A stretch of DNA of 30,421 nucleotides from Verrucomicrobia bacterium UBA3841 (GTDB taxonomy: Bacteria > Verrucomicrobiota > Kiritimatiellia > RFP12 > UBA1067): the NCBI GenBank assembly GCA_002392765.1, contig DGHT01000015.1, positions 16,531 to 46,951 on the forward strand. The letters are read 5' to 3'. Position 1 is the stretch's first letter. Each line of letters begins with the position of its first letter. Of this stretch, positions 15,832-29,702 are shown piece by piece. The notes beneath the pieces are model-generated. The model ran no database searches and was not told the DNA's origin. It worked only from the letters and a program-made list of their open reading frames with translations. The position numbers and the translations under genes were made by a program.

Positions 15832-16669
15832 TAAATTCGAGGCATACGCAAAAATCAACCTCTTTCTTGAGGTTCTCGGGAAGCGCGCGGATGGATACCA
15901 CGCGCTTCGTTCTTTAGTCGTCCCCGTGTCCCTGTCGGACACTTTGGCGATCCGGAAATCAGATACGATGCGCTCCTCCTTCGGCTTCGCCGACGATCTT
16001 TGCCTGAAGGCGGCGCGCGTCCTTTCCGGAGCCGTCGGCAGAGAACTCGGAGCGGACATATCGGGAATCAAACGCATCCCGGCCGGAGGCGGGCTGGGCG
16101 GCGGCAGTTCCGACGCCGCGGCCGTGCTCGACGCGCTTGATTCGATGTACGGTCTAGGGCTTTCGCGCGAGCGGCTCGCGGAAATCGCCGCGGATGTCGG
16201 TTCTGACGTGCCGGCGCTGGTTCTGTCGCGCCGCTGCGGCGCGGTGCTTATGGAAGGGCGCGGCGAAATCGTAACGCCCGTCGAGGGGTTTCCCCGTCTG
16301 CACTTCGTCTTGGTGAATCCCGGAGTTTTTTCGTCCACCGCGAAAGTTTTCGCAAAATGCAACTTTTGCGTGACAAACAGGCCTCCGATATTGTATAATA
16401 TATTGAACGCATTGAAAAAGGGCGATCTGGAAGGCGTCGCTGGTTCGTTCGCGAACGATCTGGAAGCTCCTGCGGTCGCGCTTGAGCCGCGTATAGGCGA
16501 GGTGCTCGGCGAAGTTAGAAGGGCGGGCGCTGTCGGCGCCGCGATGAGCGGCAGCGGTTCGACGGTGTTCGGTCTTGCGAGAGACGAGGCCCATGCGAAA
16601 GAGATTGCATCGGCGCTTGAAGGACGCGATTTGAAGGTTTGGTGCGTTCACAGCTGTCCCGTGGTGTAG
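15815..16669 (+). CDS. ispE: 4-diphosphocytidyl-2-C-methyl-D-erythritol kinase
   Basis: The N-terminus AYAKINLFLEVLGKRADGYH is typical of IspE, and the GHMP kinase motif is PAGGGLGGGSSDAAA. Candidate ATGs at 15809, 15812 and 15815 lie inside the upstream poly-Asp codons in another frame. Upstream of these, the listed ORF (15641..) is an out-of-frame read-through of the previous gene. Confidence 0.85.
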
Positions 16670-16728
16670 AGGCTGCACAGGAGATTTTGATTCTCTTGGT
16701 TCTGGTTCGATTCCAGACGGGACAACCA
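16655..16728 (+). tRNA. tRNA-Gln (anticodon UUG), CCA encoded
   Basis: Hand-folded cloverleaf. Acceptor: TGTCCCG / CGGGACA (U1:A72). D arm: GTGT-AGAGGCT-GCAC. Anticodon arm: GGAGA-TTTTGAT-TCTCT, with TTG at 16687-16689. Variable loop: 4 nt. T arm: TCTGG-TTCGATT-CCAGA. Discriminator A, then CCA. Confidence 0.85.
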
Positions 16729-16742
16729 TTTTCTCCCTCGCC

Positions 16743-16818
16743 GTTTCTTTTTTCTGTTGCCATTCGACGCGGGCTTATGATATAATCCTTGCGAACCTCA
16801 AATCAGGTTCAAAAACCC
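16743..16818 (+). repeat. Left copy of 76-bp perfect direct repeat
   Basis: gtttcttttttctgttgccattcgacgcgggcttatgatataatccttgcgaacctcaaatcaggttcaaaaaccc is identical base for base to 29776-29851. The flanking bases differ on both sides. Confidence 0.95.
16757..16786 (+). promoter_or_regulatory. Sigma70-like promoter inside the left repeat
   Basis: TTGCCA (16757-16762), 18-nt spacer, TATAAT (16781-16786). The geometry matches the pcnB promoter. It faces the M48 gene. Confidence 0.45.
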
Positions 16819-16887
16819 GAAATAAAATGATCAAGTCCAGAAGAACGGGAGGGCGGCCGTCCCCGGCCGTCGAAACGGATCGAGGAA

Positions 16888-17781
16888 ATGAACTACAGAG
16901 AATTCATACACCCGGAGGACGAGGCGGCATTGCGCAATCTTGAGGCCGTTCCTGGTTTCGATACTGTCGCGCGCTTCATCCTGGAACATTTCACGGAAGA
17001 CATGATGCATGGTCTCTATATGGCGCAGAATGTACGCCTGTCGCCGTCGCAACTTCCGGAAATATTCAATCTGTTGCCGCCGATATGCGGAAAATTCGAA
17101 ATTGAATTGCCGGAATTTTACCTCACGATGGATCCTAGACCCAACGCCTGGACGATTGGCGACAAGCGCAAGTTCATCGTATTGACGAGCGGACTTCTTG
17201 ACCACATCGCCGACAAGGATGAATTGCAGTCCATAATCGCGCATGAATGCGGACACATTGTATGCCGGCACGTGCTGTACAACACCATTGCAATGCTGCT
17301 GGTGAAATTTGGCGAGAGCCTGGGCTTTGGCCGGATTGTCATCGCACCTATTCTCCTGGCCATAAAATATTGGCAGCGGCGCAGCGAGCTTTCCGCAGAC
17401 AGGGCGAGCGCGGTGTACACCGGCGGTCACGAAGTTCCGTGCCGTGCCCTGTTGAGGATATGCGGCGGACCTGACAACTTGACGAAAAACATCAACCTTC
17501 CGGAATATGCCGAACAGGCAAAGGCGTACGATGCATTGGTTGCAAAGAGCAAGTGGAACAAACTTCTTCAAAACATGGCGATAATGGATGCAGACCATCC
17601 TTTTGCCGCTGTTCGCGTACGAGAATTGTTGTCCTGGGCGGGTAGCGAACAGTTTGCGAAACTAAAGCAGGCGATGTCTGCGGCGGAAGTCTTGCCAATG
17701 TGTCGGAAGTGCGGACGGCGCATTGCTGCCGATGCGAAATTCTGCAGGTACTGCGGCAATAATTTGAAAGGAGAGAAGTGA
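16888..17781 (+). CDS. M48-family zinc metallopeptidase with C-terminal zinc ribbon
   Basis: HECGH at 17242-17256 is preceded by NAWT..FIVLTSGLL and followed by ELSADR (third zinc ligand region), as in the M48/HtpX-like family. The C-terminus is CRKCGRRIAADAKFCRYCG (CxxC-x10-CxxC). Confidence 0.75.
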   Translation: MNYREFIHPEDEAALRNLEAVPGFDTVARFILEHFTEDMMHGLYMAQNVRLSPSQLPEIFNLLPPICGKFEIELPEFYLTMDPRPNAWTIGDKRKFIVLTSGLLDHIADKDELQSIIAHECGHIVCRHVLYNTIAMLLVKFGESLGFGRIVIAPILLAIKYWQRRSELSADRASAVYTGGHEVPCRALLRICGGPDNLTKNINLPEYAEQAKAYDALVAKSKWNKLLQNMAIMDADHPFAAVRVRELLSWAGSEQFAKLKQAMSAAEVLPMCRKCGRRIAADAKFCRYCGNNLKGEK

Positions 17782-18020
17782 TGGGTATTGTGGAGAAACT
17801 GGACGAACTTGTCCAGAAGTCGGCGTCGTTCCGGAAAATAATGGAGGACGGCGTGGTTGAAGACAGCGAAGTTGAAGAGCAGGCAAAGCGGGTTGAGACG
17901 CTGCTTGCGGAGCTGGAGCGGAGTCTTTCGCCCGGTGATTTCGAGCGGGTCGCTGAGTTTATGGCAGAACTTTCGGTGCTGCAGGTGATCCTGCGCTACA
18001 ATCAGATTGGAGGACGGTGA
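17781..18020 (+). CDS. Small acidic, predicted helical protein
   Basis: 79-aa ORF whose ATG overlaps the upstream TGA (TGATG). No motif recognised. Support comes from operon packing only. Confidence 0.4.
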   Translation: MGIVEKLDELVQKSASFRKIMEDGVVEDSEVEEQAKRVETLLAELERSLSPGDFERVAEFMAELSVLQVILRYNQIGGR

Positions 18021-18021
18021 C

Positions 18022-18522
18022 ATGGCTTTCGCTTCGCAAATGAAATTCAACGTTTCGCCGAGCTGCATTCCGCACATGGCAAAGGCATTGGAGAATGCGC
18101 TCAGGGAAGAGGGATATGATACGAAGTGCGACACATTGTTGAACGGCGACGTTGTCGTTTCGCTGACAAAAGGAGGAATGTTCAAGGCTGTTGTCGGAAT
18201 GAAAACCGCGCTCAAAGTGGAGCTTCGCGCCGACTGCGGAAGCGTCCTTGCCAAGACGGGCGTCGGCATCTGGGGCCATCAGATAGTGCCAACCGTAATC
18301 ATGCTCCTCTGGTTCTGGCCTGTACTCATTACGCAGATATGGGGTCTTGTGCAGCAAAGCCGTCTTGACGCGCACGTGATGGATATCCTGTCCAGGGCGG
18401 TGTCCGGCGGGATGGACGCAATAGACGTTCCATCAGAGGACGTTTCCTCTGCCCGCTTTTGTTCCGAGTGCGGCAAGCCTGTCCACGGCAATTTCTGCTC
18501 CAACTGCGGCGCGAAGGTGTAA
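18022..18522 (+). CDS. Single-pass membrane protein with C-terminal zinc ribbon
   Basis: ATG at 18022, 8 nt after GGAGG (18009-18013). One hydrophobic helix (IVPTVIMLLWFWPVLITQIWGLV). The C-terminus is CSECGKPVHGNFCSNCG. Confidence 0.55.
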   Translation: MAFASQMKFNVSPSCIPHMAKALENALREEGYDTKCDTLLNGDVVVSLTKGGMFKAVVGMKTALKVELRADCGSVLAKTGVGIWGHQIVPTVIMLLWFWPVLITQIWGLVQQSRLDAHVMDILSRAVSGGMDAIDVPSEDVSSARFCSECGKPVHGNFCSNCGAKV

Positions 18523-18532
18523 GGAGGGGTTG

Positions 18533-20800
18533 ATGAACGGAATGGTGTTTGCGTTCAAGACGGCCGTGTACCTTGCGTTCGGGGCTTTGACGACCGCTGC
18601 AATGCTGCTTGTTATGGTGCGGGCGGCTCGGAATAAGTATGCGATGATATTGATTGGCGTATTTCTCTTCATCGCAGGGTTTGTTACATATTTCTCTCCG
18701 GTTGAGTCTTGCGGCAAAGCAGGCGGCTCGCACGGGATTCCCGGCAGTGCGAATGACTGCGCCCGTCCTGTGTCTGCAAATACGAATGAATGTTTGCGCG
18801 CAAACGCATGTATGGCGGATTCGACGCAAAACACTGCGGACGACATCTCCGCAGGCGGATGCGTTTTCATTAAAAACGGTGCAAAATCACTGTCGTCGGT
18901 GAACAGGACTCTCTCGGCTTTTTATCCGTCAAGAGGGGAGTACGACGACACGCCTCCACCAGGCTGGGGCGGGCTGAAATACTGGCTGTTCCATCTCGCC
19001 GCGATTCTTTATATCTTGACACTTGCGGTTTCCTACTTCGGTATTGAGCTGATCAACGCGGCGTCGCTGTGGATGCGCAAACAGGCGAAAAAATGGCGAC
19101 TCGGCGCATTCGTGCGGCAATCGGAATTGAATGTGTTCTGGGATGCGGGGCAGGAATCGGAAGCATTGGCCGGACAGATGCCGTCGAAAAGCGTCGTTTT
19201 CGCAATCGCAGCCGGCGGACGGTCGTGGCGTAAACTTCAGGACGACGATGCGATATGCAGACTTGTTCGCAAGGGTGTGTTGTGGATTTCTTCCGATTCC
19301 AAAACCAATCGCAGACTGCTGACAATCGCAAGACGCCATTTCTTCATCGGTCCGGACTGCCATGAAAACGTTGTGAAGGCGCAGAAATATGTTCAGTTTT
19401 TGTATGACGAAAACATTCGGCATAAGGTCGATGTGTATGTTCGCGTGTGGTCGGATGCCGATGATGACGCCGTCTACGCATGGGCGGACAAATGGAACGG
19501 CAGGTTTTCGAAAGAAGGATTCCTGACGCAGATAAACGTTCTGCGCGAAGAGTCCATCGTCTCCAGGAGATTCCTTGTAGACCATCCAATGCTGGATTGT
19601 CCCGGAGTGAGAGTTTCCGATTGCCATACGGCTTCTGTCGCAGGCGAATTCAAGTTGCTTGTTGTCGGCTTTGGCGTTCAGGGAGAGCGGCTTATGGGCG
19701 ACATGATCTGCGATGCGCAATTCCCGGACGGGAAAGGCGGCGCGATTCCGGTTTCCGTCGATGTGGTTGACAGGGACGATGCGTCGTTTGGATGGTGGAA
19801 GGCGAACTGCAAAGAGGCGTGTGCGCGGTATGGAATCCATTTCGAGAACTGTGCCGCCGAAAGCGACCGCTTTTGGAGGTTTATTGAAAGCCGTTGTGTG
19901 TACAACCGGATTGTGATCAGCACTCATGACGACATCTTGAATCTCCGGTTGGCGAACGACATTGCCAATTACTATGCTAAACGGTATAGGATGGATTATG
20001 CGGTACTGCGCAATACAATCTTCGCGCGCGTTCGCAGACCTTCGCTGTCCAAGGTGCTTTGCGGCGGCATGGCGGACAGATATCAGCTGTTCGGCGATGT
20101 ACTGGACACGTATTCTCCGAAATGGCTGCTGAACGACTCGTGGGACGATGGAGCAAAATTCATCAACGGTGTCTGGAGCGCCGTGTACGATGAAGATTTC
20201 AGGAAGCTTCCCGACGGGGCGGACGTGATCAGATGGTACCTCGACAATATGGATCGCGGCGAGAAATACTGGGCGGCAAGGCCAATGCTCGACAAGGAAT
20301 CTTCCCGTGCGTCGTTCTTGCACATGAGAAACATTTTGCGTCTGATGGGATATGAGTGCAGGCGTGACATGCCAACGGATGAGAATGCAGGGATAAAACA
20401 GCTGGAGATACCGGAAAACCAGAAGGAGGAGTTGAAATGCGCGGCCGGGGACGCAAAGCGCCGGGAGAAGCTTGCCGAGTCGGAACATTTGCGATGGATG
20501 GCCTTCCATTTTGTCCGGGGCTGGGAGAAGTGGAGCCCGACCGAGGACGAGCTTGAGAAGCTCTCCAACGGCGGCAAGAACAGAGTCGAGCCTAACAGCA
20601 TGAAGAGTCGTGCTCGCATACACGCGAACCTTGAGGATTTTGCCAGGCTGGACGAGGTTGACGAGAAGTTCAACATGATTAACAGGAAGAATGGCAGGGA
20701 GTCTGTTAATTCGAAGGACAAGGACATAAACATCATATATGGCATCGAAGCCATTTACGCGACCGGCTTTCGCGTGTTCAAAAAGGCGTGTGACACGTGA
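18533..20800 (+). CDS. Membrane protein with Rossmann-like (TrkA-N/RCK-like) region and C-terminal RyR-like domain
   Basis: ATG 5 nt after GGAGG (18523-18527). About three N-terminal hydrophobic helices. VVGFGVQG glycine-rich motif (GFGVQG at 19667-19684). The C-terminus EHLRWMAFHFVRGWEKW...IHANLEDFARLDEVDEKF...DKD resembles the RyR-domain pattern of the next gene. Confidence 0.55.
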   Translation: MNGMVFAFKTAVYLAFGALTTAAMLLVMVRAARNKYAMILIGVFLFIAGFVTYFSPVESCGKAGGSHGIPGSANDCARPVSANTNECLRANACMADSTQNTADDISAGGCVFIKNGAKSLSSVNRTLSAFYPSRGEYDDTPPPGWGGLKYWLFHLAAILYILTLAVSYFGIELINAASLWMRKQAKKWRLGAFVRQSELNVFWDAGQESEALAGQMPSKSVVFAIAAGGRSWRKLQDDDAICRLVRKGVLWISSDSKTNRRLLTIARRHFFIGPDCHENVVKAQKYVQFLYDENIRHKVDVYVRVWSDADDDAVYAWADKWNGRFSKEGFLTQINVLREESIVSRRFLVDHPMLDCPGVRVSDCHTASVAGEFKLLVVGFGVQGERLMGDMICDAQFPDGKGGAIPVSVDVVDRDDASFGWWKANCKEACARYGIHFENCAAESDRFWRFIESRCVYNRIVISTHDDILNLRLANDIANYYAKRYRMDYAVLRNTIFARVRRPSLSKVLCGGMADRYQLFGDVLDTYSPKWLLNDSWDDGAKFINGVWSAVYDEDFRKLPDGADVIRWYLDNMDRGEKYWAARPMLDKESSRASFLHMRNILRLMGYECRRDMPTDENAGIKQLEIPENQKEELKCAAGDAKRREKLAESEHLRWMAFHFVRGWEKWSPTEDELEKLSNGGKNRVEPNSMKSRARIHANLEDFARLDEVDEKFNMINRKNGRESVNSKDKDINIIYGIEAIYATGFRVFKKACDT

Positions 20801-21084
20801 TGAACGATGGCTATATCCCCCGTCCTCTCGACACATCGGACATATCCCTGCCCGAATCGCTCGTTGCGCTAATCGAGGCGTTGGCGGAGAATGTGCATGA
20901 CACATGGGCCAAAGGGCGAATGGACGGGGGCTGGACATACGGTCCGGTCCGCGACGACGCGAAGAAACAGCACCCCGGCCTAGTCCCGTACGCCGATCTC
21001 CCCGAATCCGAAAAGGCATACGACCGCGCCACGGCAATTTCGACGCTGAAGTTCATCTGCAAGAAGGGGTATTCTATCAAATGA
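20800..21084 (+). CDS. Stand-alone RyR-domain protein
   Basis: 94 aa. LAENVHDTWAKGRMDGGWTYGPVRDDAKKQHPGLVPYADLPESEKAYDRAT matches my memory of the RyR (ryanodine receptor repeat) domain consensus. TGATG overlap upstream and ATGA overlap downstream. Confidence 0.7.
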   Translation: MNDGYIPRPLDTSDISLPESLVALIEALAENVHDTWAKGRMDGGWTYGPVRDDAKKQHPGLVPYADLPESEKAYDRATAISTLKFICKKGYSIK

Positions 21085-22415
21085 CAGCTAATGAAGAACA
21101 TAGATGCCTGACGGAGTTCAAGGAACATCATTGGGACATGCTGCTTGATTACATCGGGCAGGGGCGTGTAGTGCCTGTATTAGGTCCGGAACTTTTGGTC
21201 GCAAATGAGGCGGGGCGAAGTGTTCCGTTCTATCAGGAGGTCTCTAGACGACTTGCACATCACTTCGACATGCCTGAAATTGAATCTGAGACGGTTAATG
21301 ATTTCATGTCCCGTTTTTTGAAGGGGAACAATACGGTAAAGATGGCTCGAACCGGCTTAATTAAGGTGTTGAAGGAACTCGAAGATCAACCGCAACCGTC
21401 TCTTCGGAAACTGGCATCGATAAATGCCTTCAAACTCTACCTGACGACAACGCCGGATAATCTGCTTGCAAAGGCATTGACCGCTTGCGGGACAGATCCT
21501 GATGTGTACTTCTTTAGTACCAATTACAAGCGCCGGAGCGACTTGCCGGACAAAAAACTGCTAGGTCGCCAACGTTACATTTATCACCTCTATGGGAAAG
21601 CTGCGCCATGTTTTGAGTATGCCATTTCAGAGGACGATCGCCTCTTGTTTTCGTGCGAATGGATGGATTCGCAGGTTAAGCCGAGGAATCTGCTGTCTTA
21701 TTTGGCGGACAAGTATCTATTGATTCTCGGATGCGGGTATGAAAATTGGCAAGCGCGCTTTTTCCTGTTTGGACTTAAGGGGGCGGAGTTGTTCTCCAAC
21801 ATTTGGGATGCAAGCAGCCTGTTGGCGGATTCGCACACCCGAAATGATGCCCAGCTTGACCGATTCCTCTCAAGGTGCAGAGGGAATATCTATTACGAAG
21901 GCGGGGCGATCAAGTTCGTGGACGAACTTTGCAAACGATTGGAGAATACTCCTGCCGTACCGTCAGAGAGGGAGGGTGATACGTTTGAGAAGGGCAGCAT
22001 CTTTATCAGCTATGCCAGCGAGGACAAAGAAGCCGCGCTCAAGATCAAGCGGCGCTTGGAGTCGTTTAGTCTTCCTGTTTGGCTTGACAAGTTTAGATTG
22101 GAAAGCGGTTCTGACTACGATGCGCGCATAGAGAACAACATAAGGAACAGCGCGCTCTTTATCCCAATCCTTTCTCAAACGACTGCGCAGACGGCTGAAC
22201 CACGCTACTTCCGCAAGGAATGGAATATTGCCGTAGACCAGTCGCTTAGGAGCTCCCCGAAAATTCCTTTTATTCACCCCATCGCACTTGATGGCGTCGA
22301 ACCTTGCGACAACATTCCCGGTGCGATAAATAAGGTTCATTGGATACACGCGCCAGGAGGCGAACTGAATGAATGCGACATTGACCGGCTTATTGATCTG
22401 ATCGCACAACTGTAG
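21081..22415 (+). CDS. SIR2-like (SIR2_2-type) domain fused to a C-terminal TIR domain
   Basis: The N-terminal half has, in SIR2_2 order, VVPVLGPELL, YLTTTPDNLL, IYHLYGK and LLILGCGYENWQARFF. The C-terminal part (from 21993) is TIR-like: IFISYASEDKE...LPVWLDKFRLESGSDY...ALFIPILSQ...YFRKEW. The listed ORF start at 20904 is an out-of-frame extension into the RyR gene. Confidence 0.65.
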   Translation: MTANEEHRCLTEFKEHHWDMLLDYIGQGRVVPVLGPELLVANEAGRSVPFYQEVSRRLAHHFDMPEIESETVNDFMSRFLKGNNTVKMARTGLIKVLKELEDQPQPSLRKLASINAFKLYLTTTPDNLLAKALTACGTDPDVYFFSTNYKRRSDLPDKKLLGRQRYIYHLYGKAAPCFEYAISEDDRLLFSCEWMDSQVKPRNLLSYLADKYLLILGCGYENWQARFFLFGLKGAELFSNIWDASSLLADSHTRNDAQLDRFLSRCRGNIYYEGGAIKFVDELCKRLENTPAVPSEREGDTFEKGSIFISYASEDKEAALKIKRRLESFSLPVWLDKFRLESGSDYDARIENNIRNSALFIPILSQTTAQTAEPRYFRKEWNIAVDQSLRSSPKIPFIHPIALDGVEPCDNIPGAINKVHWIHAPGGELNECDIDRLIDLIAQL

Positions 22416-22426
22416 GAGGCGTGTAT

Positions 22427-25400
22427 ATGTCTAATAATGTTTTCAAGTCCGCGTGGCCAGGTCTGAATTCCTACGAAGAGGAAGATCAATCCCGTTTCTT
22501 CGGAAGGGACAGGGAGATTGATCTTTTGAAGGATGTCATCGGCACTGAATCGTTATGTACGATTTACGGTGTTTCCGGCGTCGGGAAGACATCCCTGTTG
22601 CAGGCTGGTGTTTTCCCAGAGTTGCGGGCGCGTTGTTTCCTGCCAGTGTATTTGCGTCTGGGACATGACAAAATTGACAGGCCGTATGCAGCCCAAATCA
22701 TTGAAGGATGCCTCGCGGCGGCGCGGAAGTCAAGACTTGAGGTGGTAGAGACATGTCAGGCGCTGGGGGCGTCCGAACATGAGACGCTATGGGAATGGTT
22801 TCACAGGCATGAATTTTTGAACGCCGTCAAGAAAGTCGTGCGCCCGGTTCTTGTCATCGACCAGTTCGAGGAAGTGTTCACACAGGGGAGTGACAAGGCT
22901 GAAAAAGAGTCTTGGTTTGATGAATTGACCGACCTGTGTTCCAACAGCGTTCCGGAATCTGTTGCAGATTTCATGTCTAATTCTGAAAATGATTTGGCTT
23001 TCCAAACAGAGAACCAGACCTGGCGCACGGTAATCTGTTTGAGAGAAGATTTTCTCTCGCGTCTAGAAGAGCGAACTGTTGAGTACCCGATATTCAAGCG
23101 GAACCGCATATCAATAGGGCCGTTGAGTGCCGAAAACGCAATAGAGGCGGTACTGAAAGGCGGAGATGGAATTGTCGATCTGACAGTCGCCGAATGTATC
23201 GTAAGGTATGTAGGAGGTTCGGCCGGGAAAATTGAGACCCCATTGCTTTCGTTGTTTTGTTCGCGTCTTGACATCCTTCGGCAAAGGGCTGGGTTGCCGA
23301 AGATCTCGCAGGAACTCGTCGAAGGAAACAAGGGTAAGATACTGAACAGTTTCTACGATGAATCGATGGGGCTTGTTTCGGCGTCATCCCGCGACTATCT
23401 TGAGGCGAATCTTCTGAACGAGGGGGGCTACCGGACGCCGGTACAACTCGATGAGGCGGAACGGAACGGTGTCCGGCCCGAAGAATGGAAAACACTTGAA
23501 AGAGTTCGCCTGTTACATGTGATTTCACGTGACAATGTACAGTGGTTGGAATTTAGTCATGACACCTTGGCGCCGGTTGCGAAAAGCGCACTTGAAAGGC
23601 GAAAAGCGGACAGGGAACGGCATGTGATGCAGGAGAAGTTGGCTCGTTCACGTCGTCGCACCAGAAGGCTCTTCTATGCATTTGTCGGCTTTGTCGGCTT
23701 TATATGCATCGCATCGTTTGCAACGTGGTTTCTGTTCTACAAGGAACATGTTGCGTACTATAGGGAATTTACCAAGAAATGGGGATGTCCAGTTGGGGTC
23801 GGTGCGCCGCTTACGATGGAACAGGTGCGCCACAGGGAATGCAGTTTTAGAATGAAGCGAAAGGGTCTGTATTCGCGGCGCGGCTTCCATTTTGAACCCA
23901 CCTATGCATATCGCGTCGAGGCTGTCAACGGTCGTCTGCAACCGACGACCGCACATGGGATGGTGACGTATTTGTGGGGAGGGGAAAATACAGCAAAACA
24001 GATGCAGAAAGAATTGGATAAGCGGAATTCAAATTATAAAGGGGACGCAAAAAGCGTTGGTAAAGACAACGCAAATGACAACCGCAAAAGTGGCTATTTG
24101 ACGTCAACGAAACTGGGAACAGTTTGCACATGGGAATTCATGTGTGACAAAGATGGTTTGCCGGAACGCGAAATCGGCTATGACGAAAAGGGCGAAATAG
24201 TATGGATGATGCCGTATGCCGTGGAAGCCACTGCAAATAGCGGGAAGCCAGAGTCTGCGATTGTGCATTTTACAATGAAAGACAGTTATTCGGTGAGACA
24301 GCGGCTGGACGATGCAGAATATGTAAGAATAACATACGACGATAAAAGCGGTTATGAAACAAAATACGAGTTCCTCGATAGGTATGGTAATGAAACCATA
24401 GGACCGGATGGTGTGTATGCGCGATCTCGAGAGTATTATTCTTCGGGGCGACTTAAGAAGCACGCCTCTTTGGATGTAGCAGGGAATTACATCATTGACC
24501 TGGCTGGGAATACAGGCCTGCGGTATGAGTATTCAGATGACAATCGGGAAATGCGCGTCACATCATTTGGTACAAACGAAGAGGCAAAGGCTTTAAACGA
24601 TGGATGGGTAAAATGTGTGCAGCGATATGACGAATGGGGAAATCTTGCGGAGCAAAGTTTCTACGATGCGACAAATCGGCTGGCTCTTTCCGATGGATGG
24701 CCGAGTGCCATCGTTGAAAGGGATTCCTATGGTCTCAAACAATCAGTGACATTGAGGGGGCAGATGTCCAATGGAGAAGATTTGGAACAATATGTTCTTT
24801 TTGATGTCGAGGGCAATGCGACAAACGTAGTGTGGCGCAATGCAAATGACAAAAGACCTAGCTGTAAGCCGGGAACTGAAGTACACATGATCTGCCGAGA
24901 GTATGCAGGCAAGGACAGGGCTTCGGTCGAGTGGTATTTAGATGTGAATAATGAGGCGATCACAAATGAATATGGCGTTGCCAGGGATGTGAGTATATAT
25001 GACACATCAACAGGCATGCTCGACACGAATAACCTTTACGCCCTGCCAGGACAAGGTGGAGCGCTAGGATACACCAATGTCCATCATTCATGTACGAGTT
25101 TTGATGGGTTCGGAAACCAGACCGGAGAAAGGTATTTTGATGCGGATGGGAATCCTACTGCGGATAACAACGGTGTATTTGAGTGTAAGTACTTGTGGCA
25201 GGGTGGCTATAAGGTTAGAGATGACTACCTTGCGCCGAATGGCAAAGGCGGGGTTGGGGGCGGCACAAACGTGCATCACATGGTGAAAATCTACAAGACA
25301 GTCAATGGTGCGAATCTTTGCGTGTGCGAGAAGTATTATGGTTGCGACGAAAGCCCGGTCGCGAACAATTACGGCGTAGCGAGAGTGGAATATACGTATG

Positions 25401-26440
25401 ACACAGCCGGCGTTGAAAGACGCCGAGATATGTATTCGGCGGATGCCGCCGGAGGAATCTGGGGGTGCACAAATCTATGCCATGTACTTGAGACGCGTGA
25501 TGAAAGGGGAAACACCGAGACGCAGCAGTGTTTTGACAGGGATGGGCGATATGTCGCATCTGACGGCACTGGGATGGTTGTTGGTCGTATGTCTTACTTT
25601 CCCGGTTCAGGCGATAATCCGCCCGTCATATCCATGCTTGATGGTTTCTCAATGCCGACGGTTGGCTTTGGCAATGACGGAAGAAGATGCAGGGTGACGC
25701 GATTCTACCGTAAAGACGGAGGAGAAAGAAGGACTGAAGAAGTAGATTTCAGCGGTAATCGCCATATTGAGGAAAAGAATACTGACGGTAATGTCACCTC
25801 CGAGGAGTTTGCGGGTGCGAAAGATGGTGGAATTGCCGATTTCAGTCTGCACGGAGTGGCTAAAATCAATCGGTGTTATGGTATAAAACCTGCCACTTTG
25901 TTTGAGCGTATATTCGGTGGGGGAGTCAAGCATAAGGACATTTGTGTGCGCGAAATGTATCTTGATTCATCGGGGAATCCGGTCGTCAATCGTTTTGGTA
26001 TCGCGGGATGGCGCAAGGATACGGATTACTCATCCGGCAAAATTGGGAATACCTTGTACTTTGATGTTTCAAGTAATGAAATGAAAGTTGCCGTAGGCAG
26101 GATTGTGACACCCAGCAGGGTTAGACCGCTCGGTATGGCTGACAAGAATGGAATCAAGGTTGGCGATATAATCTGTCACTACAACGATTATGATATATTG
26201 CGTTCCTCCTTGGATGTCATGGAACAAGTCGTTTCAACCGGGATGAACGATAATAAACGGATTGTCATCGGCAGAAGAAATAAGAATGGCCAATACGACA
26301 TAATCCCATATATATTGCCTCCCGGTGTACTTAATTTTAATCTGGTTGATGTGCCGATTAGCGAGGAGTATTATAAAGAACTTGAACACGACTATAAGGC
26401 GTATCAGGCGTATTGCGAAAAAGAAAGCGGGATGAAGTAA
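22427..26440 (+). CDS. STAND-class P-loop NTPase with TM helix, YD/RHS-like repeat region and PDZ-like C-terminus
   Basis: ATG 7 nt after AGGAGG (22414-22419). The lead-in WPGLNSYEEEDQSRFFGRDRE is followed by Walker A GVSGVGKTS (22568-22594) and Walker B VLVIDQFEEVF. RRRTRR precedes the hydrophobic helix LFYAFVGFVGFICIASFATWFLFY (23669-23740). About 24100-26070 carries repeated YD..GN / FD.DGNP.....GV motifs. The C-terminal part is GIKVGDII...GRRNKNGQYD...LVDV. Confidence 0.7.
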   Translation: MSNNVFKSAWPGLNSYEEEDQSRFFGRDREIDLLKDVIGTESLCTIYGVSGVGKTSLLQAGVFPELRARCFLPVYLRLGHDKIDRPYAAQIIEGCLAAARKSRLEVVETCQALGASEHETLWEWFHRHEFLNAVKKVVRPVLVIDQFEEVFTQGSDKAEKESWFDELTDLCSNSVPESVADFMSNSENDLAFQTENQTWRTVICLREDFLSRLEERTVEYPIFKRNRISIGPLSAENAIEAVLKGGDGIVDLTVAECIVRYVGGSAGKIETPLLSLFCSRLDILRQRAGLPKISQELVEGNKGKILNSFYDESMGLVSASSRDYLEANLLNEGGYRTPVQLDEAERNGVRPEEWKTLERVRLLHVISRDNVQWLEFSHDTLAPVAKSALERRKADRERHVMQEKLARSRRRTRRLFYAFVGFVGFICIASFATWFLFYKEHVAYYREFTKKWGCPVGVGAPLTMEQVRHRECSFRMKRKGLYSRRGFHFEPTYAYRVEAVNGRLQPTTAHGMVTYLWGGENTAKQMQKELDKRNSNYKGDAKSVGKDNANDNRKSGYLTSTKLGTVCTWEFMCDKDGLPEREIGYDEKGEIVWMMPYAVEATANSGKPESAIVHFTMKDSYSVRQRLDDAEYVRITYDDKSGYETKYEFLDRYGNETIGPDGVYARSREYYSSGRLKKHASLDVAGNYIIDLAGNTGLRYEYSDDNREMRVTSFGTNEEAKALNDGWVKCVQRYDEWGNLAEQSFYDATNRLALSDGWPSAIVERDSYGLKQSVTLRGQMSNGEDLEQYVLFDVEGNATNVVWRNANDKRPSCKPGTEVHMICREYAGKDRASVEWYLDVNNEAITNEYGVARDVSIYDTSTGMLDTNNLYALPGQGGALGYTNVHHSCTSFDGFGNQTGERYFDADGNPTADNNGVFECKYLWQGGYKVRDDYLAPNGKGGVGGGTNVHHMVKIYKTVNGANLCVCEKYYGCDESPVANNYGVARVEYTYDTAGVERRRDMYSADAAGGIWGCTNLCHVLETRDERGNTETQQCFDRDGRYVASDGTGMVVGRMSYFPGSGDNPPVISMLDGFSMPTVGFGNDGRRCRVTRFYRKDGGERRTEEVDFSGNRHIEEKNTDGNVTSEEFAGAKDGGIADFSLHGVAKINRCYGIKPATLFERIFGGGVKHKDICVREMYLDSSGNPVVNRFGIAGWRKDTDYSSGKIGNTLYFDVSSNEMKVAVGRIVTPSRVRPLGMADKNGIKVGDIICHYNDYDILRSSLDVMEQVVSTGMNDNKRIVIGRRNKNGQYDIIPYILPPGVLNFNLVDVPISEEYYKELEHDYKAYQAYCEKESGMK

Positions 26441-26508
26441 TGACATCTAAGCGAACGCTTACGGGTTTCCGCGGATTATATCCGGCATATTAGGTTGTTT
26501 TGCGACAG

Positions 26509-26542
26509 ATGCGGAGCATGCTCCGCATTATTATTGTGTTTT
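26509..26542 (+). terminator. Putative intrinsic terminator closing the 7-gene operon
   Basis: Perfect 20-bp palindrome atgcggagcatgctccgcat (26509-26528), immediately followed by tattattgtgtttt. Confidence 0.55.
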
Positions 26543-26565
26543 GATATGAATTATGGTATACTTGT

Positions 26566-27060
26566 GTGCAAAATGAGGATTTGAACATGATAGATCGTCC
26601 TTATGGGCTTAAGTGGCTTTGGCAATGGAAAGACCATGAGCCGATAAAAGTCGTCACCGGCATACGACGGTGCGGCAAATCGACATTGCTTTCAATGTTT
26701 CAGGAGCAATTGCGCGAAGACGGCATCAACGCCGATCAGATTGTCGCAATCAACTTTGAGCATCCGGATTTCATGGAACTTGACAATTCCGCCGCCGTAT
26801 GGAAATACTTGAAGCCGAAAATTGCCCAGGGACGAAATGCATACGTTTTCCTTGATGAAATTCAGCGTGTAAGAGACTTTGAAAAGGTGGTTGACGGACT
26901 TTTGTGCTGCCTGGCGTTGATGTCCTGTTGCGCTTGATGCCGTGGTACGATACATCTTCGACAACATCGGGAATCTCACGAGCATGCGGAATATCGCGAC
27001 AGTCCTGAAGTCTGAAGGCGTTTCAATTGATGCTTCTTCTGTTGAGGACTATGTCTCCGC
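26566..27060 (+). pseudogene. Decayed AAA_14 / DUF4143-family ATPase gene
   Basis: The N-terminal fragment has Walker A GIRRCGKST and Walker B VFLDEIQ, then a premature stop at 26935-26937. A second fragment in another frame (from 26942) reads VRYIFDNIGNLTSMRNIATVLK..SVEDYVSAL, like the DUF4143 part. Intact family members are, from memory, roughly 400 aa. Confidence 0.6.
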
Positions 27061-27212: not shown

Positions 27213-29018
27213 ATGAACAAGTCACAACAATACGATATCTTCATTTCATACCGCCGCGAGGGCGGATATGACACGGCGCAGCTGCTGTACGACCGGTTGA
27301 CGCAGATGGGCTATCGCGTGTCGTTCGACCTGGAGACGCTGCGCGGCGGGAAGTTCAACACGCAGCTCTACCGGCGCATCGAGCAATGCTCCGACATGCT
27401 TGTCATCATGAGCAGGGATTCTCTTAACCTTCGCGAGAATCACGAGGACGACTGGTTCCGGCTGGAGATCGCCCACGCGCTGAAGCACAAGAAGAACATC
27501 GTCCCCGTGTTCCTGCGTGACTTCAAGTTCCCTCAGAAAGGGGAGTTGCCAGACGATATAGCCGACCTGGTGGACTATCAGGGCGTCACGGCGTCGCAGG
27601 AACATTTCGACAGTGTGCTGAATCGGATATGCAGGAACTTCAAGGCGAAGCCCCATCGGCGCAAATGGCCGGTAGTCGCCGCCATTGCCGCAGCTCTTCT
27701 TGTCGGCGCGGGGATTGGAGTCTGGTTGAAGGCAGACAAGATTTTCCCGTATCCTTTTACCAGAGAGGCAAGACAGGAGGTTGATGCATACTATGGAACT
27801 GTGTTGCGGATTGGGGCCGCCTACAATGAATTTCTGTCCGCAAAGATGGAACTTCTTGACAAGGTCAGTTTGAGTATAGAAGCTGAAGACAAGGCGCCAT
27901 ATCAAGCCGCCGTACCAGAGTTCTTGCATCGACGCGGAATGGCGAGAAAAAATCTCGACGCCGCTGCTGAGGCGTTGGAAAGAGTTGTCAAGGAGAACCC
28001 CGGATTGCGTGTGGATCGCGCATACATACCGAATTTCCTGGAGGGGGTACGACAGGAATTCGGCGATGCGGATGAGTGGGCTGCTCTTTTCAGCCTCCCG
28101 TGTGATCCTGATTACGTATGCTCAAAGGCAAACAGGATTAGGATTGTCATGCTCAATCGCAAGGAGATTGAGATATATGCCGACGTGTTTGCCTATGGCG
28201 TCATGTTCCTTTTCGACATGATTTCGCCGGAAGCGCTCGCTGACTTTAGGGAAGTCGCGGCAAAACAGTGGACGATGTTGAAGCGGTTCAGAGGTGAATG
28301 GCTGTCAGATCAAAAGCAGATTGAACAGAATGGCGAGGCTTCGCTGAACCAGCTTCAAGAAGTGGTCGAGGAGCGTGCGCAGATAATAGGAAATACGGCA
28401 CAGGCCCTGGAGCAGGCTAAGCGCAACACCAGGCAAATGAGAATGGACGCGGGAATGTCGCCGGAACAAGCCGAGAGAATCGGCAAGAAGGAGGAGGAGC
28501 TTGAGAATTTGAAGGCGCAGAGGAAAGAGACGCAAAAAGCGATAGCGGATGCACGAGAGCGGCTCCGCAAGAAGTTCGCGCCGAAGGATGATGACGACAT
28601 TGGAATACTCTGGGGCAAGGCGTTGCGGTTCATGTCAGTCAATATGCCGGAGGAGGCGAAGCGGTGTGCAGATGTTTTGCGTCGGCGCAATACGCCGGAT
28701 TTCCCGCCATCGGCGATAGACACCGCGGAGGCGATCATCCTGTCTAAAGGCGCGTTGCCGTTTGTGGGTGGTGTCTTGGTTTGTTCATACGAACCGCCGG
28801 CTACGTCTCATGCGATATTCAAAATCGGAGACGTCGTCACGGAAGTGAACGAGAAACCATGTCTGTACTTCGAGGATTACAGCAGCAAGGCCGGCAACAC
28901 CTACACGATATACCGTCGAAACGCGAAGGGCCAGTTTGACAAGCTGACGGCAACCATGCCTGAAGGCCAGCCGCGTGTGGCTCTGGTGGATTTGGCGGAG
29001 AAGGGCGACCGCAAGTAG
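27213..29018 (+). CDS. TIR domain - TM helix - coiled-coil region - PDZ-like C-terminal domain protein
   Basis: GGAG lies 7 nt upstream of the ATG. TIR start YDIFISYRREGGYD...VIMSRDSL...DDWFRLEIAHAL...IVPVFL. KAKPHRRK precedes the helix WPVVAAIAAALLVGAGIGVWL (27666-27728). A charged heptad-like stretch runs about 28300-28580. The C-terminus is IFKIGDVVTEVN...YRRNAKGQFD...LVDL. Confidence 0.75.
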   Translation: MNKSQQYDIFISYRREGGYDTAQLLYDRLTQMGYRVSFDLETLRGGKFNTQLYRRIEQCSDMLVIMSRDSLNLRENHEDDWFRLEIAHALKHKKNIVPVFLRDFKFPQKGELPDDIADLVDYQGVTASQEHFDSVLNRICRNFKAKPHRRKWPVVAAIAAALLVGAGIGVWLKADKIFPYPFTREARQEVDAYYGTVLRIGAAYNEFLSAKMELLDKVSLSIEAEDKAPYQAAVPEFLHRRGMARKNLDAAAEALERVVKENPGLRVDRAYIPNFLEGVRQEFGDADEWAALFSLPCDPDYVCSKANRIRIVMLNRKEIEIYADVFAYGVMFLFDMISPEALADFREVAAKQWTMLKRFRGEWLSDQKQIEQNGEASLNQLQEVVEERAQIIGNTAQALEQAKRNTRQMRMDAGMSPEQAERIGKKEEELENLKAQRKETQKAIADARERLRKKFAPKDDDDIGILWGKALRFMSVNMPEEAKRCADVLRRRNTPDFPPSAIDTAEAIILSKGALPFVGGVLVCSYEPPATSHAIFKIGDVVTEVNEKPCLYFEDYSSKAGNTYTIYRRNAKGQFDKLTATMPEGQPRVALVDLAEKGDRK

Positions 29019-29042: not shown

Positions 29043-29702
29043 ATGAAACCTAAGCGAATAATCCTAGTGCGGCACGGACGGTCGGCGGCGAATGAGGATC
29101 CGACCGTGTACAGTCGTGTGCCCGACTACAAGATCGAGCTTGTGGAGCAGGGGCTGGAAGAGGCTCGCCGGGCTGGAGAGCATATTCGCGATCTGATTGG
29201 ATCCGAATCCTACGGTGTGTATGTTTCGCCGTATCGCCGTACCTTGCAGACCAAGGAATGCATTGTTGAACGGATAGGTTTTGCGCCTGCATTTGATTAT
29301 CAGGAACCATACCTTCGCGAGCAGGAGATGGGCAATATGCCGGCAATCATCGATAATGAGTTGAACTGGGCGGCACGAAAGAAGTACGGGACGTTCTTCT
29401 ATCGATTCCCGGACGGCGAGTCGTGCGCGGACATCTATGACCGCATGTGCGGATTCCTCGACAATCTCCACCGGCAGTTTGGCAATCCGGACTATCCCCG
29501 GAACATCATAATCGTCACGCACAGCGTCGCCATGTGCTGCTTCCTCTTCCGCTGGTATCACTGGACGGTGGAGAAGTTCGACTCTCTGCCGCTCTTGCCA
29601 AACTGCCACATCGCCGTCATGACACGCGGAGATGACGGGGCGTTTGTGCTGACCGAGCCATATTCCATGAAACCGTATCTGTCAACTGACGACAACCAAT
29701 GA
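29043..29702 (+). CDS. Histidine phosphatase superfamily (phosphoglycerate mutase-like) protein
   Basis: The N-terminal RIILVRHGRSAAN carries the RHG catalytic motif. SPYRRTLQT and IIIVTHSVAM follow at the expected spacing. 219 aa. Confidence 0.75.
   Translation: MKPKRIILVRHGRSAANEDPTVYSRVPDYKIELVEQGLEEARRAGEHIRDLIGSESYGVYVSPYRRTLQTKECIVERIGFAPAFDYQEPYLREQEMGNMPAIIDNELNWAARKKYGTFFYRFPDGESCADIYDRMCGFLDNLHRQFGNPDYPRNIIIVTHSVAMCCFLFRWYHWTVEKFDSLPLLPNCHIAVMTRGDDGAFVLTEPYSMKPYLSTDDNQ

Follow-up and report, generated by a model that had tools for sequence, protein, structure and literature searches.

What is the function of a protein that joins SIR2 and TIR, the two principal folds of NAD+-cleaving effectors in bacterial immunity, in a single chain, and does each of the two halves act as an enzyme? 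This question is raised by a protein of 444 amino acids (aa) encoded in a DNA stretch of 30,421 nucleotides (nt) from Verrucomicrobia bacterium UBA3841 (contig DGHT01000015.1, positions 16,531 to 46,951 of the forward strand), which is called the window in the following and to which all nucleotide coordinates refer unless a locus is named. Its gene is directly followed by a gene predicted to encode an NTPase of the nSTAND1 clade. The analysis described here led us to assume, with a probability of roughly 55%, that both genes form a two-gene conflict system of the STAND type resembling the nucleotide-binding leucine-rich repeat (NLR) receptors, in which the SIR2-TIR protein serves as the cytosolic output subunit. 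The features of the pair, all of them located on the + strand, are as follows.

21081..22415 (+): gene of the SIR2-like-TIR fusion protein, 444 aa (open reading frame (ORF) and translation; Pfam TIR_2, weak SIR2_2)
21081..21950 (+): SIR2_2/ThsA-type Rossmann domain, probably catalytically degenerate, aa 1-290 (family profile against ThsA, Foldseek)
21450..21452 (+): codon of Thr124, in the column of the catalytic Asn112 of ThsA (profile alignment to ThsA)
21591..21593 (+): codon of Tyr171, in the column of the catalytic His152 of ThsA (profile alignment to ThsA)
21585..21587 (+): codon of His169, three residues before the invariant Gly172, regarded as a "displaced" catalytic His in a preliminary description of the locus
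21993..22415 (+): TIR domain, aa 305-444 (Pfam TIR_2; PDB matches AbTir, PdTIR, SPARTA TIR-APAZ and SARM1)
22218..22220 (+): codon of Glu380, the predicted catalytic glutamate of the TIR domain (invariance; hidden Markov model (HMM) alignment to E77 of SPARTA)
22427..26440 (+): gene of the nSTAND1 NTPase, 1337 aa from the ATG at 22427 (Pfam nSTAND1)
23681..23737 (+): predicted single transmembrane helix of the nSTAND1 protein, aa 421-439 (hydropathy)
23738..26437 (+): variable C-terminal region of the nSTAND1 protein, about 900 aa, predicted extracytoplasmic sensor

The assignment of the N-terminal half to the SIR2 fold is based on the Pfam matches of its relatives, on a family profile and on a structural model. 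In the single sequence the Pfam family SIR2_2 (PF13289) was detected below the threshold only (17.5 bits compared to a cut-off of 24.5, E 0.0045, aa 119-231). Homologues of the SIR2-TIR protein number 282, with approximately 450 aa each, and the majority of those with an identity of 45% or less carry both SIR2_2 and TIR_2 according to the precomputed Pfam annotation, and SIR2_2 matches were also found in three relatives of different architecture (P0266, P0185 and P0205). A profile of the N-terminal domain, built from 17 sequences and their first 296 residues, matched ThsA (8bto and 6lhx, E 1.3e-6 and 2.6e-6) as well as SeThsA (1.3e-3) and EcThsA (6.6e-3). The AlphaFold model of the protein, calculated from an alignment of 37 sequences, reached a predicted local distance difference test (pLDDT) score of 88 and a predicted template modelling (pTM) score of 0.74, and the Foldseek search with this model returned BcThsA (E 3.8e-11, probability 1.0) followed by SeThsA, EcThsA, Avs5 (E 1e-8), DSR2, KomC and SIR2/HerA. 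The N-terminal half is therefore a DHS-like (sirtuin) Rossmann fold of the SIR2_2/ThsA type. The SIR2-type motifs VVPVLGPELL (aa 30-39), YLTTTPDNLL (120-129), IYHLYGK (167-173) and LILGCGYENW (214-223) follow one another in the expected order. A match of aa 79-155 to interferon-gamma (E 1.6e-4) obtained in the PDB search with the single sequence was dismissed as spurious, this part of the protein being a helical region of low complexity; the TIR matches in that search were only partial.

The residues of the catalytic columns were examined in two samples of the family, one comprising 114 non-redundant proteins (the homologue set and the translated genome loci) and the other 142 representatives of clusters at 50% identity, that is 256 sequences altogether. 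In the profile alignment the ThsA motif WTTNYD is opposite to LTTTfD of the family and VVYKMHG is opposite to vvYhLfG. By direct count N112 of ThsA corresponds to T124 and H152 to Y171. Column 124 is occupied by T (101), S (7), C (4), M (1) and A (1) in the first sample, in which Asn does not occur, and by T (120), S (9), N (4), C (3), G (3), A (2) and F (1) in the second, so that Asn is found in 4 of the 256 sequences. Column 171 holds exclusively L (71), F (26), Y (14) and M (3) in the first and F (74), L (59) and M (9) in the second sample, His being found in none of the 256.

Furthermore, residue 37 is acidic (E or D) in 113 of 114 proteins, at a place which we take to be that of the second Gly of the phosphate-binding loop (the GAGxS motif of sirtuins). 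Since this Gly is replaced in addition to the catalytic residues, canonical NAD+ binding by the SIR2-like half appears doubtful as judged from the alignments. In ThsA the exchanges N112A and H152A have each been shown to abolish both the binding and the cleavage of NAD+ (PMC7272460).

The SIR2-like half is nevertheless not in decay. Its mean pairwise identity across the family is 0.44 compared to 0.45 in the TIR domain, and 16% of its columns are conserved to at least 90% compared to 18% in the TIR domain. G35, G172, G217, W223, R226 and F227 are invariant, while D126 and D154 are retained in 111 of 114 proteins. The majority of these residues are located just after the predicted strands 30-34, 119-122, 166-169 and 212-216, which in the modelled fold is the topological ligand-binding site of Rossmann folds. 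The SIR2-like half thus presents itself as a conserved pseudo-enzyme with a remodelled cleft, and it is probably non-catalytic.

The TIR domain was detected by Pfam with high significance (TIR_2, aa 307-428, E 3.4e-19, 69.9 bits compared to a cut-off of 28), and the PDB matches of the family profile reached E-values as low as 3.8e-11 and included AbTir, PdTIR and the TIR-APAZ protein of SPARTA. E380 is invariant in all sequences with a TIR domain (114 of 114 and 120 of 120). The same holds for S310, Y311, D336 and W381 and nearly so for S365 and A384. An aromatic residue (Y, F or W) precedes E380 by four positions, as is the case for the catalytic Glu on helix alpha-C. Using the family profile, HMMER aligned the whole domain (positions 291-420) to MapSPARTA TIR-APAZ, with FIxPvAID opposite to FIIPLAID and E380 opposite to the Glu of VLKEL, which is E77 when counted from Met1 of the aligned MapSPARTA sequence. 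The exchange E77A has been shown to abolish the NADase activity of SPARTA (PMC9097488). Judging from this residue pattern, the TIR domain is quite likely an active NADase.

The preliminary description had proposed a SIR2-like N-terminus fused to a TIR C-terminus beginning near aa 305 (nt 21993), and this architecture is confirmed by the ThsA profile and Foldseek matches on the one side and by Pfam TIR_2 on the other; the motifs it had quoted are present in their places and in the right order. Its observation that the canonical Asn and His columns hold neither residue was reproduced in the profile alignment to ThsA, and the glutamate it had pointed out in the TIR domain is the invariant E380. 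The idea of a degenerate or regulatory SIR2-like half agrees with the substitution of both columns throughout the family. The notion of two NAD+-directed domains, however, is probably overstated: it is supported for the TIR domain by the retained Glu, whereas the acidic residue 37 and the doubtful NAD+ binding speak against it in the SIR2-like half. Likewise, the "displaced" N127 and H169 do not prove to be conserved substitutes of the catalytic residues. Position 127 is Asn in only 13 of 114 and 7 of 142 sequences (less than 12%), for which reason we rejected it as a catalytic substitute. Position 169 is His in 93 of 114 (82%) and 98 of 142 (69%), with Q, G, S, Y, R or K in the remainder, and appears doubtful in such a role since it is not obligatory.

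The gene downstream of the SIR2-TIR gene was identified as encoding an nSTAND1 NTPase (Pfam E 2.8e-30) with the Walker A motif GVSGVGKTS and the Walker B motif LVIDQFEE, both read from the sequence. Its likely start codon is the ATG at 22427, and its ribosome-binding site GGAGG overlaps with the TAG stop codon of the SIR2-TIR gene. A genome scan with one genome per GTDB species yielded 248 loci of the family, 80 of which were kept, and in all of the 77 loci with sufficient room downstream an nSTAND1 homologue was located directly 3' on the same strand. The 80 loci belong to Verrucomicrobiota, Acidobacteriota, Beta- and other Proteobacteria, Gemmatimonadota, Nitrospira, Planctomycetota, Chlorobi, Fibrobacteres, Synechococcus and a metagenome-assembled genome (MAG) of Clostridia. 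The same pairing was detected in metagenome contigs with relatives at 87%, 33% and 33% identity. Moreover, the pairwise distances of the SIR2-TIR proteins and of the NTPase domains are closely correlated (Mantel r 0.96 in 74 loci, reached by none of 2000 permutations). Other neighbouring genes are not conserved, except for recurrent extra TIR genes.

The two genes hence almost certainly function as a unit. As the nSTAND1 gene is obligatory, translationally coupled and predicted to encode a transmembrane helix, the SIR2-TIR protein is regarded as the effector or adaptor of a STAND system instead of a stand-alone enzyme. The preliminary description had treated the protein by itself; it was right in finding no SLOG or Macro domain in it, but it overlooked the NTPase partner that accompanies the gene in 77 of 77 loci. 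In one close relative (L001:11347-14727) the gene caller predicted other small ORFs although an nSTAND1-like ORF of 1126 aa is present, and the partner may be disrupted or rearranged there.

The nSTAND1 protein of the window contains one strongly hydrophobic 19-mer (aa 421-439, Kyte-Doolittle 2.15) right after the NTPase module, which is preceded by RSRRRTRR. An equivalent hydrophobic segment was found in 69 of 72 partner proteins, and in 62 of 70 the number of K and R was higher in the 15 residues before the segment than after it, while it was lower in none. Under the positive-inside rule this bias corresponds to a cytoplasmic NTPase and an external C-terminal region. On balance, hydropathy and charge thus favour a sensor region predicted to lie beyond the cytoplasmic membrane.

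The region following the hydrophobic segment varies in length between 199 and 1652 aa across the partners. In the window it shows weak matches to PDZ_2/PDZ_6 near its end (approximately 26117-26302), and a faint RHS_repeat match was obtained in close relatives. In other partners the C-terminal domains are WD40 propellers, TPR or Phage_lysozyme, or no domain could be assigned. In the nSTAND1 protein of Synechococcus sp. WH 5701 (L081:9374-11344) a phage-type lysozyme domain forms the end of the chain behind the predicted transmembrane helix, which fits a periplasmic, peptidoglycan-facing C-terminus.

From these observations we infer a NADase activity, a direction of signalling, a physical interaction of the two proteins and an immune role in the following manner. 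A cue outside the cytoplasm would be sensed by the variable ectodomain of the nSTAND1 protein, and the NTPase would oligomerise in a nucleotide-dependent manner on the inner face of the membrane. The SIR2-like-TIR protein would be recruited or clustered there, its TIR domains would assemble into active NADase sites centred on Glu380, and the resulting depletion of NAD+ would lead to growth arrest or cell death. The SIR2-like domain, probably not a second NADase, may act as a pseudo-enzyme that provides an oligomerisation or docking scaffold for the STAND NTPase and/or an allosteric pocket gating the TIR domain. The SIR2 domains of ThsA, Avs5 and FAM118B have been shown to act via filaments (PMC12700824).

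Several points weigh against this two-gene STAND system with a membrane-spanning partner. The transmembrane helix and its topology are deduced solely from hydropathy and charge bias, and sensors of the WD40 and TPR types are more commonly cytoplasmic. One relative, P0266, combines nSTAND1, SIR2_2 and TIR_2 in one polypeptide without a transmembrane helix or sensor, though it could be an assembly chimera. Neither the SIR2-TIR protein nor the nSTAND1 protein of the window has an effector-associated domain (EAD) or a Death-like adaptor domain according to Pfam, and in the absence of such an N-terminal domain on the nSTAND1 protein the recruitment of a separate protein is left unexplained. The family is also absent from PADLOC v2, whose matches concern the TIR half only (Aga_TIR, PDC-S66, SAVED-TIR and RT-TIR, and marginally ThsB with E 0.03-0.05); as neither the SIR2-like half nor the nSTAND1 partner is represented by a model, the system is not catalogued.

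Concerning the TIR domain, a local HMMER alignment placed yFrkEW of the family on FFKKEW of PdTIR, in which case the catalytic Glu of AbTir and PdTIR would correspond to the variable residue 385 and not to E380. Since this alignment extends no further and only E380 is invariant, we consider the PdTIR register a coincidental shift by one helical turn. Finally, sirtuin-fold enzymes can act without the catalytic His: SirTM sirtuins, which possess Gln instead and retain the Asn, are active ADP-ribosyltransferases (PMC4518038).

The window also contains two genes directly upstream of the pair which have to be considered as potential partners of the TIR domain.

18533..20800 (+): membrane protein with predicted tandem RCK/TrkA-like domains, 755 aa, lineage-specific neighbour (AlphaFold/Foldseek)
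20797..21084 (+): RyR-domain protein, 94-95 aa, lineage-specific neighbour (Pfam RyR, E 3.5e-34)

The 755-aa protein had no match in Pfam or in a PDB sequence search. Its AlphaFold model (pLDDT 84) matched TrkA (4g65 and 4j9v, E 8e-7 and 6e-6) and GsuK in Foldseek, with E-values ranging up to 2e-4, which indicates tandem RCK/KTN nucleotide-binding domains behind N-terminal helices. The protein family comprises 44 homologues. The RCK protein gene and an adjacent RyR gene are located next to varied TIR genes in L086, L087, L088 and L092, and in a MAG of Fibrobacteres (L009:5551-7815) both are fused directly upstream of a SIR2-TIR and nSTAND1 pair with 35% identity. A match to RyR or to the RCK protein was detected in 5 of the 85 loci examined (L001-L003, L009 and L076). 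Because approximately 75 of the family's 80 genome loci lack the module, it does not belong to the core pair of SIR2-TIR and nSTAND1. The ATG of the SIR2-TIR gene overlaps with the stop codon of the RyR gene as ATGA, and the RyR gene was considered as a core component for this reason. It was rejected since it goes with the RCK protein, as illustrated by the fusion in L009, and since most loci lack it. Altogether this suggests that the RCK-RyR genes are a separate TIR-associated module, perhaps receiving the products of TIR domains.

Such a receiver would be central to an explanation of the Thoeris kind, in which the TIR domain makes a cyclic ADP-ribose (cADPR)-type or another NAD-derived messenger that is read by the RCK membrane protein and its RyR partner as an ion-conducting or membrane-disrupting effector. 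The position of the RCK and RyR genes immediately upstream in the same packed co-directional string, the fused version directly upstream of the pair in L009 and the RCK fold suggested by Foldseek (TrkA, E 8e-7) agree with it, and so does the occurrence of the module beside varied TIR genes in six contexts with room (the window and the relatives L001-L003, L009, L086, L087, L088 and L092), which resembles the arrangement of several thsB genes beside one thsA. However, with a match in so few loci the pair evidently works without RCK-RyR, the module accompanies TIR genes without a SIR2-like domain as well, and no pore-forming element was found in the RCK protein beyond two or three N-terminal helices of low model confidence, so that we regard a messenger-based system as rather unlikely. 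Similarly unlikely is the most far-reaching form of our own proposal, namely that the pair performs outside-in innate-immune receptor signalling across the membrane, through a pseudo-sirtuin adaptor to the TIR domain, and that in this lineage of gut bacteria the output may also feed a Thoeris-like membrane effector formed by RCK (binding NAD or ATP) and RyR. If it were true, NAD-derived products of TIR domains would be linked to RyR-domain proteins in prokaryotes.

The precedent of SirTM leads to the possibility that both halves are enzymes and form a double NAD+-consuming effector, the SIR2-like half acting as NADase or ADP-ribosyltransferase via the non-canonical residues E/D37, D126 and H/Q169. 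In accordance with that, the SIR2-like domain is conserved to the same degree as the TIR domain, its conserved polar residues lie where the Rossmann strands end C-terminally, which is the NAD+-binding place of sirtuins, and position 169 is H or Q in 123 of 142 sequences. We nevertheless consider it quite unlikely, taking into account that SirTM retains the Asn which is missing here in 252 of 256 sequences, that the residue of the His column is hydrophobic and that some members have G, S, Y, R or K instead of H169. In the glycine-rich loop, which has the motif GAGxS in sirtuins, the acidic residue should moreover disfavour the binding of the pyrophosphate, and the ThsA variants mentioned above fail even to bind NAD+. 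The loss of the catalytic residues from a conserved cleft would equally suit a SIR2-like domain acting as a small-molecule sensor that gates the TIR domain, comparable to the SLOG domain of ThsA or the NAD+/nicotinamide mononucleotide (NMN)-binding ARM domain of SARM1, with nSTAND1 only indirectly upstream or independent. Foldseek aligns the whole protein to ThsA (SIR2-SLOG) with TIR in the place of SLOG, and TIR and SLOG are evolutionarily related folds (PMC7159879). Yet no ligand can be deduced. That the SIR2-TIR gene is strictly paired and translationally coupled with nSTAND1 and diverges along with it argues for a direct unit, as does the rare fusion P0266, and all this renders the alternative improbable. 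It is very improbable, finally, that the pair is not directed against phages and instead represents a switch for cell death in envelope stress, kin recognition or development that responds to extracellular or periplasmic cues. A sensor predicted outside the cytoplasm is unusual among phage-sensing STAND proteins, PDZ and lysozyme domains are characteristic of proteins that survey the envelope, and nSTAND1 systems have been discussed for multicellular bacteria (PMC8195603), but the patchy distribution over phyla, the low-GC island and the extra TIR neighbours are typical of defence islands, and both roles can coexist.

Compared with known systems, the proposed STAND pair is most similar in its N-terminal domain to ThsA, the effector of type I Thoeris (SIR2-SLOG; PDB 6LHX, 8BTO, 7UXT), which is the best match in both profile and structure; in both proteins a SIR2_2 fold is followed by a C-terminal Rossmann-like domain. 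ThsA differs in its requirement for N112 and H152, in place of which the SIR2-TIR family has Thr and Tyr, Leu or Phe, in its C-terminal SLOG ligand sensor instead of a TIR domain with a predicted catalytic Glu, and in its partner, which is the TIR protein ThsB and not a STAND NTPase. No SLOG or Macro domain was detected in the SIR2-TIR protein or in those genes of the window that were scanned (not every ORF was). A membership in Thoeris was therefore rejected, as the preliminary description had already argued from the missing sensor domains, and the conserved nSTAND1 partner adds to this.

Avs5 unites its SIR2 NADase effector and its cytosolic sensor in one chain. It likewise pairs a SIR2-fold module with a STAND NTPase (AVAST type 5, SIR2-STAND; PDB 9JAP, 9NC9), whereas the system described here consists of two genes, has a degenerate SIR2 site, an added TIR domain and a predicted membrane span, and its NTPase belongs to the nSTAND1 clade. 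We did not assign it to Avs5, in which a competent SIR2 domain is fused N-terminally to the STAND NTPase, because the SIR2-like domain and the NTPase reside on different polypeptides and the SIR2 site has degenerated.

In 2021 Kaur, Iyer, Burroughs and Aravind defined the nSTAND1 clade together with those of its versions that are linked to TIR domains and coupled through adaptors (PMC8195603). The conflict systems described there share with our pair the NTPase clade, the variable C-terminal sensor and the TIR effector, and the variant P0205 carries the bDLD3 domain of that study. In those systems the effector is coupled by shared N-terminal adaptors (bDLD3 or EADs) or fused to the NTPase, whereas here a pseudo-SIR2 domain takes the place of the adaptor and a predicted transmembrane helix separates the sensor from the NTPase. 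With a Walker A/B NTPase encoded together with an effector and a variable C-terminal sensor the pair falls within the wide class of STAND-NTPase conflict systems, although its effector is neither fused nor adaptor-linked in the window as is otherwise usual in this class and such a linkage was seen only in the rare variants P0266 (fusion) and P0205 (bDLD3).

The TIR_2 domain aligns to the TIR-APAZ protein of SPARTA over its whole length with E380 on the catalytic E77, and SPARTA, AbTir and SARM1 are all activated by induced oligomerisation. The activator in SPARTA is a short Argonaute, whereas a STAND NTPase is proposed here, and an APAZ domain is lacking. The comparison with an allosteric, non-catalytic domain as in SARM1 is an analogy only. 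The same applies to Toll-like receptors (TLRs), which likewise combine a sensor on the outer side, one passage through the membrane and a TIR output in the cytoplasm; in the system proposed here a second protein carries the TIR domain, an NTPase switch lies in between and the TIR domain is predicted to be an enzyme and not a scaffold, and no homology of the sensors is implied.

The N-terminal profile retrieved 1001 clusters at 50% identity (E<=1e-30), nearly all with proteins of about 450 aa. Apart from P0266, deviating architectures were found in P0205 (SIR2_2-bDLD3-TIR_2, with the bacterial Death-like adaptor domain between SIR2 and TIR) and in P0185, in which a Ser/Thr protein kinase is followed by the SIR2-like domain and which is truncated at the contig end. 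In the searchable literature no description was found of a pseudo-SIR2-TIR protein without adaptor paired with a predicted transmembrane nSTAND1 protein. SIR2 is not mentioned in Kaur 2020, and the only trace of the fusion is a label in the extended-data tree of the FAM118 paper, which refers to SIR2_2 proteins with a TIR domain (PMC12700824).

A SIR2 half that has lost its catalytic residues and is still conserved like the TIR domain would be a clear case of the reuse of a pseudo-sirtuin as scaffold or regulator, in a large family (about 1000 clusters at 50% identity) spread over many phyla. If the predicted topology is true, bacterial NLR-like proteins can watch the exterior of the cell as well, and prokaryotic immunity would gain a new compartment for sensing and a mechanistic parallel to TLR-type signalling. 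Apart from the pair, the RCK-RyR module beside TIR genes may represent a new receiver of TIR signals.

With regard to the wider locus, the window matches a metagenome contig of 65.8 kb. Housekeeping genes (pheT, an aminotransferase and a GHMP kinase) extend to approximately 16.7 kb of the window and are followed by a packed co-directional string of genes encoding an M48 peptidase with zinc ribbon, a 79-aa protein, a 166-aa zinc-ribbon protein, the 755-aa membrane protein, the RyR protein, the SIR2-TIR protein and the nSTAND1 protein. The sequence AAGGGG was found about 12 nt 5' of the ATG of the SIR2-TIR gene. The GC content is approximately 0.58-0.62 among the housekeeping genes and drops to 0.45-0.53 in the island (approximately 16500-27000), and the GC skew stays positive beyond about 16 kb. 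Both are consistent with a horizontally acquired block with genes mostly on one strand.

The genes of the M48 peptidase, whose zinc ribbon is C-terminal, of the 79-aa protein and of the 166-aa zinc-ribbon protein are located at 16888-18522 (+), 5' of the RCK-RyR genes. This block (M48-79-167) is also kept in L001-L003 and L092, and an M48 gene lies upstream in L088. An ORF of 702 aa at 18929-21037 (-), antisense to the RCK and RyR genes, is rich in Arg and Pro and appears to be GC-driven and spurious. On the 3' side of the pair a short AAA_14 fragment (approximately 26587-26937, +) is followed by the gene of a 601-aa protein with an N-terminal TIR_2 domain and a C-terminal part without assignment (27213-29018, +) and by that of a histidine phosphatase (His_Phos_1; 29043-29702, +). 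At the corresponding downstream place close relatives carry further TIR_2 genes and an HD_4 protein gene, which characterises the locus as a TIR-rich island.

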